Assembly (NCBI GenBank): GCA_963546395.1
Contig: CAUUMS010000002.1
Span: 12,585 to 76,584 of the forward strand
Direction: 5' to 3'
Length of the DNA: 64,000 nucleotides
From: an uncultured Bacteroidia bacterium
GTDB lineage: Bacteria; Bacteroidota; Bacteroidia; Bacteroidales; CAJPTX01
Part shown: in pieces, positions 54,800 through 63,514 of the stretch
How the letters are laid out: every line of letters begins with the position of its first letter
Numbering within the stretch: position 1 is the first letter of the stretch
Translations under genes and position numbers: made by a program
The notes under the pieces: model-generated
Told to the model about the DNA's origin: nothing
Seen by the model: the letters and a program-made list of their open reading frames with translations, nothing else
The model's database searches: none

Positions 54800-56647
54800 A
54801 TGGAGCGTGCGATGGCAAAGAAGCAGGCGAGCCTGGTGGGAGGCTTGGTGGCGCAGATGGCGGAGAGAGTCATATCGATCGACGACATCGTGTACCTCTT
54901 CGATCAGATTGACAATCAGATTTTGGAGCTGCACCGCTGCTCGTCGGAGGATTTCCTGGGGCTCAATGCCCGATTTAAGGGTTTCTACAAGGATGCGAAA
55001 GGCATTTCAGCCTGCGCCGGCGATCTATTCTTGCTATTTGCCGAGGGGGCTAATCGTCGTCTGATTGCCGACCTCACGGATTTTCACGCGGGGATAGGTC
55101 AGAGCCAGGCGCATCTGGCCGAGCTGCTAGAGTCCAGCCTTTCCACCATGGCACAGATGCGGGCGAGGCTTTCGGCACTATACCTCCCGCTGCGTAACAT
55201 GGCGCAAGCTGTGGGGACACTCAGCCTGCTGCTGACTAATCTCACCCTGGGGCATAAGCCCTTCTTACGCATGGCGCAGCACACGACGGAGAGCTTCAAC
55301 GCACTGCGGGGCGAGGTAGATCACTTTGCTGAGCGTATCAACGGGCTAGGACGCACGGTGCGCCACTACGGAGGCCAGCTGGAGCAGGCCCAGCAGCAGG
55401 TGCAACAGGTGCGCGGAAAGGCCCGGAGGAGCCTCGATGCGGTTCTAAACTCAGTGCATTACGGGCTGCTCCTGTTCGCCGAAAAGCATGCGGAGACTAA
55501 CGCCCGGGTACCGGACATTTCGCAGAAGACGGAAAGCACCTCCAAGAGCATTGCTGGCATCATCACGAACCTCCAGTACCAGGATATCATCCGTCAGAAG
55601 ATGGAGCATATCCAAGCGGCCCACCAGGAGCTGATGGGGCGCCTGCGCACGGAGCGCGAGCATGCTGAAGAGGGCAGCGCAGGGTGGATAGACATGCTCA
55701 TTCAGATTCGGGACATATCGGCGTTGCAATCGGCACAGCTGGTGGCGACGAATCGCGAGTACCAGCATGCCATCGAGACACTGTCGCAGAACTTTCAGAG
55801 CATTGCGCACGACATGGAGACGATAGCGGAGCTCAGTCGTGACACGCTGCGTATGGAGGGTGAGGGCAGTGGCACCACGGCCATTACCGGCTTGCTGGAG
55901 CGTCTCAGGGGGTCTCAGGGAGAGCTGAAGACGCTGACGCAGGTAGTGCCAGAGTTCCATGAATTGCAGGCGGAACTTGTGACTGAAGGGCAGACATTGT
56001 GCGCTGAGATCGAGGTGTGCATGGGCGACTTTCGGCGTATGATAGGCCAGATTGAGCCACTGCTGACGATACCTGAACGTGCGGCTCCCAATGCGAGCTT
56101 CACCATGATAACGCAGCAGATGGGTGCCGTGGTAGATGATCTCGTGGCCAATGCGGATAAGGTGACTACCAATGTGGCGGGCCTGGGAAAGGGTTGCGCT
56201 GCGCTGATGATGTGCGAGAGCGACCTGAAGGAGTCCCTACAGCTATGGAAGAGCTTTGAGGAAGGGGTCGATCGCATGCATGGCATCGGGACGGGTCTGG
56301 CGCAGACGGCTGGGAGGAGCGCAGAGCTGCTTGCGCAGATAGAGGCCATGAGCAAGAAGGTGTCGCATGACACTCGGATTGCGATGTCGGAGATCCGCTA
56401 TTACGATCTGTTCGAGGGTGTGATTGGGGAGATTATTGATGCGCTCAATGCCATCAGCGCACGGATTCGTGAGGAGGTGCGTGGCGAGGGAGCCGCAGGC
56501 AACCTGGAGAAGGTGCGTAGGCACTACACGATGGCGAGCGAGCATAAGATCCATGACTCGTTTCAGGGTGAAGGCGATGTGGATCTATTCGGCGACGAGG
56601 TGATAGACGAACCGGAGGAGGACGACGATGGGCTAGAGCTCTTCTAG
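54800..56647 (+). CDS. 615-aa soluble all-helical coiled-coil protein; non-canonical receptor/scaffold candidate with a CheZ-like YQDIIRQ signature
   Basis: No TM segment or signal peptide. It has NLQYQDIIRQKMEHIQ (D262/Q266), a degenerate second copy IRYYDLFEG, a Q-rich stretch EQAQQQVQQ and the acidic tail EPEEDDDGLELF. It is the first gene of the che-like operon. Confidence 0.7.
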   Translation: MERAMAKKQASLVGGLVAQMAERVISIDDIVYLFDQIDNQILELHRCSSEDFLGLNARFKGFYKDAKGISACAGDLFLLFAEGANRRLIADLTDFHAGIGQSQAHLAELLESSLSTMAQMRARLSALYLPLRNMAQAVGTLSLLLTNLTLGHKPFLRMAQHTTESFNALRGEVDHFAERINGLGRTVRHYGGQLEQAQQQVQQVRGKARRSLDAVLNSVHYGLLLFAEKHAETNARVPDISQKTESTSKSIAGIITNLQYQDIIRQKMEHIQAAHQELMGRLRTEREHAEEGSAGWIDMLIQIRDISALQSAQLVATNREYQHAIETLSQNFQSIAHDMETIAELSRDTLRMEGEGSGTTAITGLLERLRGSQGELKTLTQVVPEFHELQAELVTEGQTLCAEIEVCMGDFRRMIGQIEPLLTIPERAAPNASFTMITQQMGAVVDDLVANADKVTTNVAGLGKGCAALMMCESDLKESLQLWKSFEEGVDRMHGIGTGLAQTAGRSAELLAQIEAMSKKVSHDTRIAMSEIRYYDLFEGVIGEIIDALNAISARIREEVRGEGAAGNLEKVRRHYTMASEHKIHDSFQGEGDVDLFGDEVIDEPEEDDDGLELF

Positions 56648-56677
56648 TCCATGGCTGATAGGTAACCAATATAGGGA

Positions 56678-57019
56678 TTGGCAATGAAGACAGTAAAGCT
56701 GAAGGCGAGCGGCGGAAAAGCCAAGGGAGACGGCATCCTACAGGTGCAGGGCAGCCTGACGCTCGATTGTGTGGAGGAACTCCTGAAATTCTTCCGTGAA
56801 GGGGTGGCGAAGTATCAGAACATCCGGGTGGAGGCCGCAGGCGTGACGGGGATCGATCTCGGCTTTTTGCAGCTCCTGCATGCCCTAGACGAGTGCCAGC
56901 ACGCCAGGGGAAAGACATTGGACGTGTCGCTTGCGTTGGAGCCTGAGATGGCCCAACTGCTACGCCATGCGGGGTTTGCGCATTGGACAGGCCAGTTACA
57001 TGACGGGAATAACAGCTAA
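56678..57019 (+). CDS. STAS-domain protein (anti-sigma-antagonist fold)
   Basis: LQVQGSLTLDCVEEL...VEAAGVTGIDLGFLQLL pattern, 113 aa. Confidence 0.75.
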   Translation: MAMKTVKLKASGGKAKGDGILQVQGSLTLDCVEELLKFFREGVAKYQNIRVEAAGVTGIDLGFLQLLHALDECQHARGKTLDVSLALEPEMAQLLRHAGFAHWTGQLHDGNNS

Positions 57020-57024
57020 GTAGT

Positions 57025-57390
57025 ATGCCTAAGAGGATCTTGATTGTGGATGACTCTGAGAGTATCCGCGAGGTGGTGAGCTTTACACTTGAGAACGAGG
57101 GATTCGATGTGGTAGTGGCCAATGATGGGACGGATGCTCTCACAAAGCTCGATGGCACGCCCGTGGATCTCATCATCACGGATCTCCACATGCCCGAGAT
57201 GGATGGGATCACCCTCATCAAGCACGTGAGGGGTATGGAGCTCTACCAGCGGATCCCCATCCTGTTTCTGACGACTGAGTCCCAGACGAGCAAGAAGATG
57301 GAGGCCAAGGAGGCCGGGGCTACCGGGTGGATCATTAAGCCCTTTGTGCCAGCCAAGCTAATTGCTGCCCTGAATAAAGTGCTACGCTGA
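57025..57390 (+). CDS. cheY: CheY-like single-domain response regulator
   Basis: DD pair (ILIVDDSE), phospho-Asp in IITDLHMPEMDG, T in LTTES and K in IKPF. Confidence 0.9.
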   Translation: MPKRILIVDDSESIREVVSFTLENEGFDVVVANDGTDALTKLDGTPVDLIITDLHMPEMDGITLIKHVRGMELYQRIPILFLTTESQTSKKMEAKEAGATGWIIKPFVPAKLIAALNKVLR

Positions 57391-59495
57391 TGGACGTGAA
57401 AATGGACAGCTTTAGGCAGAAGTTCGTTGAGGAGGCCGCAGATCTCATCGAAAGCCTAGAGAAGACGGTGCTCGAGCTCGAGGAGAGCCCGAGCGATGCG
57501 GATATCGTGCAGCGCGTCTTCCGCATTATGCACACGCTCAAGGGGAACAGCAGCATGTTCGGCTTTGAGCAGATCGACCGCTTCACGCACCAGATGGAGA
57601 CCATCTACGACCTAGTGCGCAGTGGCGACCGTGAAGTCAGCAAGGCGATCCTGGATGTCACCCTGCGCTCTGTGGATCACCTCAAGCGTCTGCTGGAGGA
57701 GGCCGGCGTGGAGAGCGTCCAGCTCATGCGTGAGCAAGATGAGCTGGTGGCCCTGATGGATGGCATCATAGAGGGCCGAGAGGATGGGGAACAGGGTGCT
57801 GACGCTGTGCCAGCTGAAGAGCCTCAGGAGAAGGCCGAGGCTAGTGCGGATGGGTTTGAAACCTTCTACATTCGCTATGCACCAGTCTCCGACATTTTCA
57901 ATAATGGGACGAATCCGCTCTACCAGGTGGACGAGGTGTATGCGTTGGGGCCATGCCGGGTGAAGGTGAACATGGAGCGGGTACCCTCTCTGGAAACCAT
58001 GGAGCCGTCCTACTGCTACACATCGTGGGAGATCGTGCTGGCTACGCAGCAGGGGCGCAATGCCATCGACGATGTGTTCATCTTCGTAGAGGGTGAATCA
58101 GATCTGGAAATCCAGCGTCTCGAGTCGGGCAATCTGCTACAGAATGAGACCTTTGTGAGCGACCTTGATGCACTCTGGGATGGCCGGCCTGGCACAATCG
58201 GGGTGGAAGAGCTGCGCCATATTGTGCCTGAGGCGGTAGTGGTGCCCGAGCGCAAGAAGGAGGGCCTTAATAGGGGAGAGGTGAAAGACGTGGCCATATC
58301 GTCGATCCGTGTGGCCTCGGAGAAGCTCGACGAGCTGATGAATCTCGTCTCCGAGCTCGTGACCACGCAGGCGCGCCTCACCCTGTTCGCCGAGAAGAGC
58401 AATCTGCCCGGGCTCGTGAGCATCTCGGAGAATGTGCAGAAGCTCAGCCGACAGCTCCGCGACATTGCCTTCAGCATTGTCCTGATCCCGATAGACAATC
58501 TGATTACCCGCTTCCACCGTCTGGTGCGCGACCTCTCGAAGGGCCTCAACAAGGATGTCCGCTTCGTGACGGAGGGCTCCGACACAGAGCTTGACAAGAC
58601 GATCATTGAGGGGCTGGCCGATCCGCTGCTGCATATCCTGCGCAATAGCCTGGATCACGGCATAGAGGATGCGGAGACCCGCGAGCGAGCCGGGAAACCA
58701 CGCCAGGGTACGATTTTGCTCAAGGCCTTCTACTCCGGCACTAACGTCATGATACAGGTTTCCGACGACGGGGCTGGTATCGATTCCAAGGCGGTACACG
58801 CTAAGGCGGTGGAGAAGGGAATTATCGCAGCCGATCGGAAGCTCTCCAAGCGTGAGTGCCTCGATATGATATTCACGCCTGGTTTTAGCACCTCGAAGGT
58901 CGTCACCGACGTTTCCGGGCGCGGCGTGGGTATGGACGTGGTGAAGCGTAAGATCGCCGAGCTACGTGGTGAGGTGGAGATAGACTCCGAGAAGGGTGTG
59001 GGCACCACTATCACCATCAGGCTGCCTCTCACGCTATCCATCATCGACGGGTTACTCGTTCGGGTGGCCGATACCTCCTACGTGATCCCGCTCTCTGCTG
59101 TGGATAAGATCTACGCCGTTGAGCACCGCAAGGTGGTCAACCAGTTCAATGACGTGGTCGAGCTGGACGGCGTGCAGATCCCCTTCTTCAATCTGCGCGA
59201 GGAGTTCGAGCTCGCAGAGTTCACGGGGGAGATGGAGCAGGTGGTCGTAGTACACTTCGAGGAGAAGAAGGTAGGCTTCGTGGTGGACATGGTGGTGGGC
59301 GAGTACCAGGCTGTGCTGAAGCCGCTCGGCACGCATTACAAGAACCAGGACATGATATCGGGTGCCACCATCCTGGGCGATGGCACGGTGGCCCTAGTGA
59401 TGGATACGAACCGCAGCATCAAGTACTTCACCAAGCACGAGGAGTTTACACTTGGTGCCGAGAGCGGGACGAACGACGATAACAAGCAAAAGTAA
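57390..59495 (+). CDS. cheA: chemotaxis histidine kinase CheA
   Basis: Hpt motif RIMHTLKGNS (His codon at 57531-33), HATPase boxes (DHGIE, DDGAGID, GRGVGMDVV) and a C-terminal CheW-like domain. The ATG overlaps the cheY stop (TGATG). Confidence 0.93.
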   Translation: MDVKMDSFRQKFVEEAADLIESLEKTVLELEESPSDADIVQRVFRIMHTLKGNSSMFGFEQIDRFTHQMETIYDLVRSGDREVSKAILDVTLRSVDHLKRLLEEAGVESVQLMREQDELVALMDGIIEGREDGEQGADAVPAEEPQEKAEASADGFETFYIRYAPVSDIFNNGTNPLYQVDEVYALGPCRVKVNMERVPSLETMEPSYCYTSWEIVLATQQGRNAIDDVFIFVEGESDLEIQRLESGNLLQNETFVSDLDALWDGRPGTIGVEELRHIVPEAVVVPERKKEGLNRGEVKDVAISSIRVASEKLDELMNLVSELVTTQARLTLFAEKSNLPGLVSISENVQKLSRQLRDIAFSIVLIPIDNLITRFHRLVRDLSKGLNKDVRFVTEGSDTELDKTIIEGLADPLLHILRNSLDHGIEDAETRERAGKPRQGTILLKAFYSGTNVMIQVSDDGAGIDSKAVHAKAVEKGIIAADRKLSKRECLDMIFTPGFSTSKVVTDVSGRGVGMDVVKRKIAELRGEVEIDSEKGVGTTITIRLPLTLSIIDGLLVRVADTSYVIPLSAVDKIYAVEHRKVVNQFNDVVELDGVQIPFFNLREEFELAEFTGEMEQVVVVHFEEKKVGFVVDMVVGEYQAVLKPLGTHYKNQDMISGATILGDGTVALVMDTNRSIKYFTKHEEFTLGAESGTNDDNKQK

Positions 59496-59507
59496 CAAGG
59501 CAAGGCC

Positions 59508-60041
59508 ATGAATGAGCATAAAGGCGAGGGGATGTCAAAGATCAATTCCTATCTCACATTCAAGCTCGGCGAGGAGAAATTTGCAGCCCATGTGAGCAAG
59601 GTGCTAAACATCCTCGAGATGACTCGCATCACGGAGGTACCCAAGTCGCCCGACTACATGACAGGGGTTATCAACCTTCGGGGCTCGGTGCTCCCTGTGG
59701 TAGACACGCGCATCAAGTTCGGCATGACACCCACCGAGTTCACCCCCAACACGTGTATCGTGGTGATGGACATTGACCTCGAGGGGGAATCAGTTTACGT
59801 GGGGGCCCTGGTGGACGCTGTGCAGGCTGTCATCGAGATCGAGGATCAGGATATTCTGCCGCCTCCCTCTCTGGGCACCAAGTACCGCTCGGAGTTCATC
59901 GTGGGGGTGGCCAATGTCAATGACAGCTTCGTCATGATACTGAACATGGACGAGGTCTTTAGCACCGAGGAGATCGTGAGCATCCACGAGCACACGGTGG
60001 AGGCCCCAGAGGCGCAGGAGTCGGAGAACTCGCAGGAGTAA
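59508..60041 (+). CDS. cheW: coupling protein CheW
   Basis: YLTFKLGEEKFA...GVINLRGSVLPVVD pattern. Confidence 0.9.
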   Translation: MNEHKGEGMSKINSYLTFKLGEEKFAAHVSKVLNILEMTRITEVPKSPDYMTGVINLRGSVLPVVDTRIKFGMTPTEFTPNTCIVVMDIDLEGESVYVGALVDAVQAVIEIEDQDILPPPSLGTKYRSEFIVGVANVNDSFVMILNMDEVFSTEEIVSIHEHTVEAPEAQESENSQE

Positions 60042-60104
60042 TCATTCGTTACCACATCCAGAGGCTGCCAGGTGTAGTGCCCGTGGCAGTAAACGAGAAG
60101 AAGC

Positions 60105-60974
60105 ATGGCAGACACAGAGCTTCCGTACGCCGAGCTCCACAATAGCTACCGGGTTGAGCTTGGCGATAGGGACTTCGAGCGCTTGAGTCGGTTCATCTAT
60201 GCCGCCGCTGGGATCAAGATGCCGCCGGCAAAGAGAATCATGCTCCAGAGCCGCCTGCAAAAGCGCCTGCGTGAGCTCAACATCGCCGACTTCACCACCT
60301 ACGCCGACTATGTGCTCAGCGAGCGCGGCCAGCAGGAGGAAATCATCCACATGCTCGATGTGGTCAGCACCAATAAGACCGACTTCTTCCGTGAGCCGGT
60401 GCACTTCGACTTCCTGCGCGATGTCGTGCTGCCCGAGTTCTTTCACGGACAGGATCGGGGTCGCATCAACGTGTGGAGTGCCGGATGCTCTAGCGGCGAA
60501 GAGCCATACACCATCGGCATGGTGATCTCCGATTTCATAGCGGGCCACCCCGGTTGGGATTTTAGCGTCCTGGGCACCGACCTGAGCACTAAGATCCTGG
60601 CTGCTGCCGTCAATGCGGTGTACAAGGAGGAGCGGGTTGAGGGGATCCCATTGGCCACCAAGCGTAAGTATTTCCTGCGGAGCAAGGATCGCGAAAAGGC
60701 CACCGTGCGCATCATCCCCGAGCTGCGACGGCATATGCACTTCCAACGGCTGAACTTCATGGATCCCAGTTACACCATTCACGAGATGTTCGACGTGGTG
60801 TTCTGCCGCAACGTGCTGATCTACTTCGATCGGGCCACGCAGGAGGCCGTCATCCGCAAGCTGTGCACCAAGCTCAAGCCGAATGGCTACTTCTTCCTGG
60901 GCCACTCGGAGTCCATTATGAACATGAATCTACCCCTGGCGCCCATCAAGCCAACCATTTTCCGCAAGAAGTAA
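60105..60974 (+). CDS. cheR: protein-glutamate O-methyltransferase CheR
   Basis: TNKTDFFRE, WSAGCSSGEEPYT and FCRNVLIYF. Confidence 0.92.
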   Translation: MADTELPYAELHNSYRVELGDRDFERLSRFIYAAAGIKMPPAKRIMLQSRLQKRLRELNIADFTTYADYVLSERGQQEEIIHMLDVVSTNKTDFFREPVHFDFLRDVVLPEFFHGQDRGRINVWSAGCSSGEEPYTIGMVISDFIAGHPGWDFSVLGTDLSTKILAAAVNAVYKEERVEGIPLATKRKYFLRSKDREKATVRIIPELRRHMHFQRLNFMDPSYTIHEMFDVVFCRNVLIYFDRATQEAVIRKLCTKLKPNGYFFLGHSESIMNMNLPLAPIKPTIFRKK

Positions 60975-60982
60975 ACGGACAC

Positions 60983-61936
60983 ATGAAACGCGAGGAGTCG
61001 AACATTGCACCGTCCACGGCCGAGTGCCCCCGGCACGCCGCCCTCTCCGATGCTGAGCTGCTCGAAGAGCTACGTCGCCGCATCATGCGCGCCAACCAGA
61101 CGGTGGAGGAGCTCACGAGCCTGAATGAGGAGCTGCGCATTGTCAACAAGAAGCTCGAGGAATCCGAGGAGCTCAAGAGCCACTTCATCAGCAATATCAC
61201 CAACGAGATCATCAATCCCTTCACCTCTATACTGGGCCTGTCCAGGGCGATACTGAGTGTCGATAAGGAGTCGTGGAAGAAGGTAATCTCCATGGTGGCC
61301 CTGATACACGCCGAGGCCTTCAGCCTCGACTTTCAGTTCCGTAACATCTTCTTCGCGGCCAAGCTCGAGGCCGGTGAGGCTCGCCCGGAGGTGTTGAACT
61401 CGAACATTCGTGCCCTCGTAGAGGGGGTCGTGGAGAGCTTTCGCTTCGAGTTGCGCAAGAAACGCCTCAACCTCTCGGTGGTCGACAGCTTGCCTGGCAG
61501 GCCACAGGACGCCGAGCCCTTCATGTTCAAGAGCGATCCAGCCTACATCAAGCTGATACTGGCCAATCTGCTCAGCAATGCGGTCAACTTCAGCTATGAG
61601 GGAGGCGACATCGAGATCGCCTGTGCCTTGCGTGATAACAGGCTCGTGCTCAGGGTGCGCGACTACGGCACAGGCATTGCCCCTGAGCAGCTCAGCTCCA
61701 TCTTCGATCGCTTTAAGCGGGGTGACAACGGCATCAACTCCGTCAACCGTGGCCATGGCCTCGGCCTCTCTGTGAGCAAGGCCGTCATCGATTTGCTCGA
61801 GGGCCAAATCACCGTGGAGAGCGAGCCGGGAGTAGGATCCGTCTTCGAGATCCAGATCCCCGAGGCCACTACCCCCGTGGAGGGATTTGCCTCCGAGGCC
61901 AATGAGATATTCTTCGATGATGAAGAGATATTCTGA
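60983..61936 (+). CDS. soluble HisKA/HATPase_c kinase-like protein with a non-canonical H-box (Asn at the phospho-acceptor position)
   Basis: Coiled-coil N-terminus with no sensor domain. The H-box FISNITNEIINPFTSILG compares with the consensus FlANvSHELRTPLtsIlG. The N box (LLSNAVNFS), G1 (RDYGTGI), F (FDRF) and G2 (GHGLGLS) are intact. The start is taken at MKREES. Confidence 0.8.
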   Translation: MKREESNIAPSTAECPRHAALSDAELLEELRRRIMRANQTVEELTSLNEELRIVNKKLEESEELKSHFISNITNEIINPFTSILGLSRAILSVDKESWKKVISMVALIHAEAFSLDFQFRNIFFAAKLEAGEARPEVLNSNIRALVEGVVESFRFELRKKRLNLSVVDSLPGRPQDAEPFMFKSDPAYIKLILANLLSNAVNFSYEGGDIEIACALRDNRLVLRVRDYGTGIAPEQLSSIFDRFKRGDNGINSVNRGHGLGLSVSKAVIDLLEGQITVESEPGVGSVFEIQIPEATTPVEGFASEANEIFFDDEEIF

Positions 61937-62409
61937 TGGTGGCCATGGCGACACGAGAGACGCACTTCCTCTACCCTGCTGCGCTCTTTGCGAGCCCAAC
62001 ACCCGTCACGGTATCCACCATACTGGGCTCATGCGTGGCCGTATGCCTATTCGATAAAGAGCGAGGCATCGGGGGTATTAATCACTACATGCTCCCATTC
62101 TGGAACGGGCAGGGGCTAGCTAGCCCCAAGTACGGGAACATCGCCATCGAGAAGCTCCTCGAGAAGATGCTCTCGCTCGGTTGCCGCAAGGAGAACCTCG
62201 TAGCCAAGGTCTTCGGTGGGGGCGAGGTCATCGAGACGCACTCCCAGTTCCATATCGGGGCGCGCAACATTGAGCTGGCCACCACCACGCTCCGTGAGCT
62301 TGGCATCCCCCTGGTGGCGCGCAGCGTGGGGGGCCCCAACGGGCGTAAGCTCGAGTTCGACACCGAAACAGGAGCCGTGAGGCAGCGGCTGATCCAGAAA
62401 ACTATTTAG
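61936..62409 (+). CDS. cheD: chemoreceptor glutamine deamidase CheD
   Basis: TILGSCVAVCLFD and INHYMLP motifs. The ATG overlaps the preceding stop (TGATG). Confidence 0.88.
   Translation: MVAMATRETHFLYPAALFASPTPVTVSTILGSCVAVCLFDKERGIGGINHYMLPFWNGQGLASPKYGNIAIEKLLEKMLSLGCRKENLVAKVFGGGEVIETHSQFHIGARNIELATTTLRELGIPLVARSVGGPNGRKLEFDTETGAVRQRLIQKTI

Positions 62410-62428: not shown

Positions 62429-63514
<1,086 letters not shown>

Follow-up and report, generated by a model that had tools for sequence, protein, structure and literature searches.

A chemotaxis operon in a 64,000-nucleotide (nt) stretch of DNA from an uncultured Bacteroidia bacterium (contig CAUUMS010000002.1; here called the window) was found to encode a histidine kinase-like protein in which the phospho-accepting His is replaced by Asn. 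The gene for this His-less kinase-like protein (HKN) lies at 60983..61936 and specifies 317 amino acids (aa); all window coordinates given refer to the forward strand. The same Asn was present at every orthologous locus recovered, and the HKN gene was in each case followed directly by cheD. The reading preferred here, at a probability of about 0.45, is that HKN is a kinase-dead transmitter that docks phosphorylated CheY (CheY~P), or the receiver of CheB, on its DHp domain and, in a CheC-like pairing with CheD, serves as a dedicated phosphatase.

The HKN open reading frame (ORF) started 9 nt past the stop codon of cheR, and its own stop codon overlapped the start of cheD (TGATG). The protein matched the Pfam family HATPase_c (PF02518) with 95.9 bits (2.7e-27), above the cut-off of 26.4, while the match to HisKA (PF00512) reached 18.3 bits and remained below the gathering threshold of 26.9. 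Precomputed PF00512 assignments were found on 0 of the 120 close homologues described below, and from NCBIfam generic kinase models alone were returned, every score being far under its cut-off. The register of the H-box was taken from phmmer alignments with solved kinase structures. The H-box (residues 65-86, KSHFISNITNEIINPFTSILGL; 61175..61240) gave gap-free alignments with GacS (7z8n) and WalK-type kinases, lkshfisnitNEiinPftsilgl of HKN being paired with iksEFlanmsHEirtPlngilgf of GacS. Asn74 (AAC, 61202..61204) fell on the column of the phospho-acceptor His in GacS, WalK-type kinases, HK853 and DivL. The E/D-x-x-T/N motif that follows the His site, together with the Pro after it, was present as E75-I-I-N78-P79 (E-x-x-N, 61205..61216), with Glu75 encoded at 61205-61207 and the +4 residue, Asn78, at 61214-61216; the significance of the +4 position is known from other kinases (PMC3510030). 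A His (His67; CAC, 61181..61183) was located 7 residues upstream of Asn74. All of the ATP boxes were found, namely N (N195/N199; 61565-61591), G1 (D227-x-G229-x-G231; 61661-61675), F (F241-x-R243-F244; 61703-61714) and G2 (G257-x-G259-x-G261; 61751-61771).

Neither Pfam nor an AlphaFold2 model revealed a transmembrane segment or a sensor domain in HKN, which was predicted to be a soluble protein made up of a coiled coil followed by DHp and CA domains. The model was built from an alignment of 46 relatives and had a pLDDT of 82.3 and a pTM of 0.72. After a disordered start (residues 1-22), a continuous helix (residues 23-92; 61049..61258) formed a coiled-coil stalk, with a weak match to the coiled coil of ZapB, and led into DHp alpha1. 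It was followed by DHp alpha2 (residues 98-129; 61274..61369), the two helices giving the hairpin of HisKA-type proteins ahead of the alpha/beta CA (HATPase_c) domain (residues 138-293; 61394..61861), in which the ATP lid was of low confidence. The acidic and aromatic C-terminal tail (EGFASEANEIFFDDEEIF; 61877..61933) was disordered, with pLDDT <50 for residues 308-317. In Foldseek searches with the model, the top matches were HK853 in its complexes with RR468, followed by DivL (E about 1e-18, TMt 0.80-0.84), and WalK and GacS were also among the matches at about that E-value. A preliminary description of the window had claimed the gap-free alignment to the HisKA consensus, the Asn at the acceptor position, the retained Glu and +4 Asn, the intact ATP boxes, the upstream His, and a coiled-coil protein without transmembrane or sensor domain. 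Each of these was recovered here from the codons of the window, the phmmer register, Pfam or the model.

Three sets of relatives were compared. The close set consisted of the 120 best homologues of HKN (58-73% identity), which came from Bacteroidales and Tenuifilaceae metagenome-assembled genomes (MAGs) and from Tenuifilum thalassicum. The ortholog set comprised 61 loci from species-representative genomes, including those of Candidatus [Bacteroides] periocalifornicus and Perlabentimonas gracilis; P. gracilis and T. thalassicum are cultured carriers. The wide set was obtained by an exhaustive HMMER search of 1.84 billion representatives of 50%-identity clusters and held about 145 short proteins of about 295 aa with 36-48% identity to HKN. 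Five long sequences from the representative search (P0126, P0252, P0267, P0269 and P0270) were canonical hybrid kinases with SHE(I/L)RTP H-boxes and were rejected as members of the family.

Asn74, Glu75, Asn78 and His67 were all kept in 121/121 sequences, that is, the close set plus HKN itself. The preliminary description had proposed that orthologs be aligned at the acceptor codon; this alignment gave Asn at 61/61 loci and His at none, the codon being AAT in 33 and AAC in 28. The use of both codons points to synonymous turnover under purifying selection. In the wide set (n=145), Asn74 was present in 143 sequences, Asn78 in 142, Pro79 in 145 and Glu75 in 136. The distant orthologs with Asn74 came from one MAG each of Nitrospira (39% identity) and Holophagales (36%) and from MAGs of the Marinilabiliales type (37-39%). 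These alignments show that the acceptor His has been lost across a large, multi-phylum family. Homologues are named 'sensor histidine kinase' or 'HAMP domain-containing histidine kinase' in the databases, and this kinase naming is almost certainly wrong. Full-text searches, with subscription journals outside their scope, returned no paper describing a His-less kinase-like protein beside cheD, and the family has apparently been undescribed so far.

Conservation extended well beyond the H-box. N-terminal to the CA domain, the positions conserved in at least 95% of sequences were L58, E62, K65, F68, N74, N78, P79, E111, L115, Q118, N121, A126, E129 and G131, those from alpha2 forming the family signature E111, L115-D-F-Q118-F-R-N121, A126 and E129-x-G131. 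In the CA part they were D185, N195, N199, G229, F241, R243, F244, G257, G259, G261, L262 and G274. The ATP boxes were 88-100% conserved across 144 representatives, with N199 and G229 at 100%, G257/G259/G261 at 98%, G231 at 92% and D227 at 88% (Asn in 11%). At the C-terminus, the internal motif G-N-E-x-F-F, which precedes an acidic run and a terminal Phe, was seen in 114/142 sequences, and the last residue was Phe in 107/142. The tail was considered as a CheR/CheB-binding pentapeptide of the NWETF type and rejected, as its end (NEIFFDDEEIF) has no aromatic residue at -4. A receptor-like CheD substrate motif (A/S-x-x-E/Q-E/Q-x-x-A/S) was sought by eye near LEESEELKS and near N74-E75, and the register did not match. 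The EESE stretch was likewise dropped as a CheD site, since hybrid kinases ordinarily have a similar stretch ahead of the H-box.

Two variants of the architecture were observed. A subclade from Bacteroidales/Marinilabiliales MAGs (L058:7480-8298 and L060:7986-8804) was shorter, at 273 aa, and had lost the G1 box, with ISNIPTEGIK in place of DxGxG. Asn74 and Asn78 were retained in it, as were the N and G2 boxes and the neighbouring cheD. Because this subclade lacks G1, ATP binding may be dispensable in some members of the family. The Holophagales ortholog (L059:7605-8858, contig JBBQHW010000004.1) was a natural fusion of 418 aa, in which an N-terminal receiver domain (REC) retaining the DD, D, S and K residues precedes HKN, with cheD following it. 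Its H-box read QSHFIDHMRNELNDP, the +4 residue being Asp.

The most informative feature of HKN is its obligate pairing with cheD, which, like the existence of a large family, was missing from the preliminary description. In the window, cheD (61936..62409), a member of the receptor glutamine deamidase family (Pfam CheD, 1e-27), is the downstream neighbour of HKN. The same arrangement was seen in 61/61 orthologous loci and, immediately downstream, in 5/5 distant metagenomic cluster representatives, giving 66/66 loci overall with a median gap of 14 nt between high-scoring segment pairs. The commonest order was cheR-HKN-cheD-cheB, with cheB-HKN-cheD in Nitrospira. In Nitrospira and Holophagales, the surroundings of cheA were rearranged while HKN-cheD was unchanged. 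At one locus from a Bacteroidales MAG labelled Rikenellaceae (L039:6428-7957), an extra block of REC, kinase-like and REC genes was inserted between cheR and HKN, and the HKN-cheD junction was intact.

The genes for the known phosphatases of such pathways were largely missing. The genome that contains the window (2.06 Mb, 98% complete) had one CheA, one CheW, eight methyl-accepting chemotaxis proteins (MCPs) encoded elsewhere and about six receivers, and a whole-genome search found no CheC, CheX, CheZ or FliM. CheC and FliM were absent from 15/16 other HKN genomes, and CheC and CheX from 17/18 HKN genomes, the exception in both cases being the flagellated Holophagales MAG. With FliM absent from 16/17 tested carriers, the carriers were mostly non-flagellated. 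A Pfam scan of HKN itself gave no match to CheC (PF04509) or CheX (PF13690). Of 301 genomes sampled evenly from the phylum, 24 had cheD. HKN stood beside cheD in two of these (the genome of the window and G259). A small CheC-like ORF (156-176 aa) was found within about 1 kb of cheD in nine others, all from family f29 and all lacking an HKN ortholog (G084, G148, G152, G156, G168, G172, G204, G232 and G276). HKN and a CheC-like gene occurred together at cheD in 0/24.

Under the phosphatase reading, HKN would be a soluble, dimeric HisKA-type transmitter protein in which autophosphorylation has been permanently lost because Asn stands in place of the acceptor His. It would retain a receiver-docking DHp surface, a water-positioning +4 Asn and a nucleotide-binding CA domain. 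CheY~P, and possibly the CheB receiver too, would bind helix alpha1 and be dephosphorylated faster. The candidate substrate or ligand CheY is a single-domain receiver encoded at 57025..57390 (Pfam Response_reg, 6e-29; 72-91% identical across the Bacteroidales loci), and the second candidate receiver belongs to CheB (62432..63514; REC plus methylesterase, Pfam). HKN would thus be the dedicated phosphatase of a pathway without CheC, CheX, FliY and CheZ, and would form with CheD the kind of pair known for CheC in Bacillus and Thermotoga, so that the level of CheY~P would be linked to receptor modification. Phosphatase catalysis, the target receiver, the physical contact with CheD and a docking role for the acidic, Phe-terminated tail are the parts that we infer.

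Published mutagenesis provides a basis for such a protein. In CrdS, HK853, HK1190 and HK4262, the Asn or Thr at +4 was the sole residue needed exclusively for phosphatase activity (PMC3510030). The acceptor His was dispensable in CrdS, CrdA~P having a half-life of 2.6 min with the H371A variant, 0.7 min with the wild type and 53 min alone, and it was likewise largely dispensable for the phosphatase activity of EnvZ (PMC3510030). The engineered NtrB H139N, which carries the same His-to-Asn change, acted as a phosphatase only (10.1101/122606). A helix-borne catalytic E-x-x-N is used by CheX and CheC, and DxxxQ by CheZ, with the same water-positioning chemistry (PMC3510030). PMC3513319 gives the phosphatase CheC as the known partner of CheD, with binding strengthened by CheY-P, and PMC9087282 describes an acidic/aromatic C-terminal tail mediating response-regulator binding in Streptococcus mutans WalK.

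Several of the present results argue for this reading. These are the acceptor Asn of every ortholog combined with the lack of any conserved alternative His, the near-invariant Asn78 (142/145) and invariant Pro79 (145/145), the natural REC-HKN fusion of Holophagales, and the predicted canonical DHp-CA fold, best matched by HK853-RR468 complexes. To these are added the adjacency to cheD in 66/66 loci, the absence of CheC and CheX, and the complementary occurrence of HKN and CheC-like genes at cheD.

Other observations weigh against it. The conserved ATP boxes are not obviously needed by a pure phosphatase; nucleotides do stimulate the phosphatase activities of EnvZ and NtrB. CheD needs no partner of the HKN or CheC type, because twelve cheD genomes of the survey had neither. 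In the Bacteroidales operons, the first gene, with its CheZ-like DxxxQ, could encode an alternative phosphatase. Rate covariation (mirror-tree) was analysed over 45 loci, with CheY, CheA, CheW, CheR, CheD and CheB compared as partners of HKN. The residuals showed similar correlation with CheA, CheR, CheD and CheW, and neither CheY nor CheD was singled out over these loci, the CheY distances being noisy (r about 0.25 throughout), probably because paralogous REC matches were included. Glu75 was conserved in 94% of the family, and the acid at +1 was needed solely for kinase activity in CrdS (PMC3510030). Finally, phosphatase activity is lost in PleC H610A, which means that at least one HisKA protein does require the His (PMC3510030).

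The preliminary description had left a choice between a dedicated phosphatase, a pseudokinase scaffold and a kinase using a shifted His. The first two would both be compatible with a conserved Asn78 and Pro79 and with the HisKA mutagenesis in the literature. In the second, HKN would resemble DivL, binding CheY~P on its DHp domain without hydrolysing it and, as a sensor or scaffold, informing CheD, CheA or the receptors in a 'reverse' direction of signalling. This is the main rival, and we consider it the less likely of the two. DivL, in which His is replaced by Tyr, was the second-best structural match of HKN (4q20, TMt 0.84), and PMC4211667 provides the precedent of a kinase repurposed to sense DivK~P. 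The conserved CA domain and Glu75 make more sense as a conformational switch than as parts of a phosphatase, the coupling to cheD would suit a sensor that sequesters CheD, and the subclade without G1 suggests that ATP binding is not a universal need of the family. On the other hand, the +4 Asn and Pro79 hardly vary, which is the pattern of a catalytic phosphatase motif, and the pathway is otherwise without a recognised CheY~P phosphatase.

An inhibitor resembling RetS is improbable. HKN would then heterodimerise through its DHp domain with the P3 domain of CheA or with the other HisKA kinase of the genome, or drain its phosphate, and so modulate kinase output. Structures of the RetS kinase region (6dk7 and 6dk8) were among the fold matches, and the mirror-tree residuals of HKN correlated best with CheA (0.80), though similarly with CheR, CheD and CheW. 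CheA P3, however, belongs to a different family (H-kinase_dim), and the conserved neighbour is cheD rather than cheA, around which the gene order differs in Nitrospira and Holophagales. The two-component repertoire of the genome was very small for 2.06 Mb, with a single further match to a HisKA-type kinase (C7:78668-79021) and a receiver adjoining it (C7:79151-79483).

More improbable still is a true kinase in the Bacteroidales clade, in which His67, on the same helix face two turns upstream, would be autophosphorylated and pass its phosphate to CheY or CheB. His67 was present in 121/121 sequences of the close set with HKN and, encoded by CAC or CAT, in 60/61 orthologous loci, and both the ATP boxes and Glu75 are intact. 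In the wide set, however, residue 67 was His in just 72 of 145 sequences; 34 had Asn, 14 had Gln, and the others carried Arg, Asp, Tyr, Gly or Glu. Among 144 representatives, 55 had no His in helix alpha1 and 28 had none in the whole DHp domain. The Nitrospira ortholog has Asn at this position (KTNFLSNIRNEINNP) despite the same HKN-cheD context. Since no His was conserved across the representatives, a family-wide kinase function through an alternative DHp His is excluded on this evidence. Use of His67 confined to the Bacteroidales clade is not supported by the alignments either: nearly the whole alpha1 helix is invariant in that clade, so the constancy of His67 carries little information. No HisKA protein with its acceptor moved by 7 residues is known to us. 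The shifted-His kinase raised in the preliminary description thus found no backing.

A GHKL Ser/Thr kinase or partner-switching protein that, like SpoIIAB/RsbW, targets a STAS protein, here the one encoded in the operon, is very unlikely. HKN was borderline for HATPase_c_2 (PF13581), with 27.1 bits against a cut-off of 27.4, and a STAS gene (56678-57019) lies within the operon. The threshold was nevertheless missed, and HKN possesses a full DHp domain, which SpoIIAB-type kinases lack. The STAS protein would be an unlikely kinase substrate because Leu (GIDLGF) occupies the phospho-Ser position of SpoIIAA-type proteins. The STAS gene was moreover absent from the Nitrospira, Holophagales and Marinilabiliales-type loci, all of which still had HKN-cheD. 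Lastly, the caveat of the preliminary description that AAC is one transversion away from CAC, and that a sequencing error, strain-specific mutation or decaying pseudogene might be involved, can be set aside as negligible, given an intact and strongly conserved frame, Asn fixed in all orthologs of a multi-phylum family with both AAT and AAC in use, and 12 member sequences on 13 contigs in the protein cluster of HKN itself.

The complete operon of the window reads 615-aa helical protein, STAS, CheY, CheA, CheW, CheR, HKN, CheD and CheB, the genes upstream of HKN spanning 54800..60974 (assigned by Pfam and synteny). No significant domain, including Pfam MCPsignal, was found in the 615-aa product of the first gene (54800-56647), and relatives of this gene were recovered in Bacteroidales-type loci only. 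The protein contains NLQYQDIIRQ, a CheZ-like DxxxQ sequence, and has an acidic end (DDDGLELF). Its tail resembles that of HKN, and the two may share a docking partner.

Elsewhere in the genome, a 728-aa MCP (contig C4, around 119872-120375) had a long Pro/Ala-rich linker and the end DSDADYESF, a pentapeptide-like tether for CheR/CheB. The other seven MCPs ended directly after the signalling hairpin. On contig C2, a second CheR-like stretch (78876-79469, 26% identity) and a second CheB-methylesterase-like stretch (82329-82874, 32%) were located 2.3-6.3 kb past the right end of the window and may be part of a sensor protein of the CheB/CheR-fusion type.

If HKN is indeed a phosphatase-only or sensor-only HisKA protein, it would be a natural and evolutionarily fixed one. 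To our knowledge, such a state has until now been represented mainly by laboratory mutants (NtrB H139N and EnvZ H243V) and by the single lineage of DivL. HKN would be wired into the chemosensory pathways of mostly non-flagellated bacteria, and its strict pairing with cheD would offer a handle on how CheY~P signalling is terminated in systems without CheC, and on the role of CheD beyond the Bacillus paradigm. A further-reaching and rather doubtful proposal is that HKN-CheD forms a new adaptation module replacing CheC-CheD, in which CheY~P docks on the His-less DHp domain and is hydrolysed via Asn78, and in which the acidic Phe tail, together with the nucleotide state of CA, determines whether CheD is held or released. 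CheD released from HKN would then deamidate and activate receptors, and a kinase fold running in reverse would couple receptor modification to the CheY~P level and to ATP/ADP in the cell.

Compared with known systems, HKN shares the DHp-CA fold, the H-box register and the E-x-x-N/T followed by Pro with HK853-RR468 of Thermotoga maritima, EnvZ of Escherichia coli and CrdS of Myxococcus xanthus, and it shares with the engineered NtrB H139N the identical His-to-Asn change at the acceptor. Unlike these bifunctional HisKA kinases and the NtrB mutant, HKN lost its His by evolution, throughout a family, and not by mutagenesis. It further differs from the bifunctional kinases in having no sensor or transmembrane domain, in being encoded in a che operon beside cheD, in its sub-threshold HisKA match, in the family-specific alpha2 residues Q118 and N121, and in the acidic, Phe-terminated tail.

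DivL of Caulobacter crescentus (4q20) is likewise a HisKA-type protein that naturally lacks the acceptor His, with 28% identity to HKN over the DHp-CA region, and it binds a phosphorylated single-domain receiver, as is proposed for HKN. The two are not orthologs: DivL has Tyr rather than Asn, a membrane anchor and PAS domains, acts in cell-cycle control through CckA and has no link to CheD. RetS of Pseudomonas aeruginosa is a further example of a kinase fold acting without conventional autophosphorylation, but unlike HKN it retains the His, has the build of a large hybrid sensor and acts on GacS through heterodimer formation.

The resemblance to CheC-CheD of Bacillus subtilis and T. maritima, which lies in the adjacency to cheD and the helix-borne E-x-x-N, is one of functional analogy only. 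One of the two was present where the other was absent, as HKN genomes were without CheC/CheX and the f29 genomes had a CheC-like gene without HKN. In contrast to CheC, CheX and FliY, HKN is of the GHKL/DHp type, contains a nucleotide-binding domain and has no kinship to them in sequence or fold, and its binding of CheD is putative. HKN is best read as closest in its working to a HisKA kinase locked in the phosphatase state and closest in its looks to HK853 and DivL; in the genome it takes the place of CheC and CheX, to which its sequence is unrelated.

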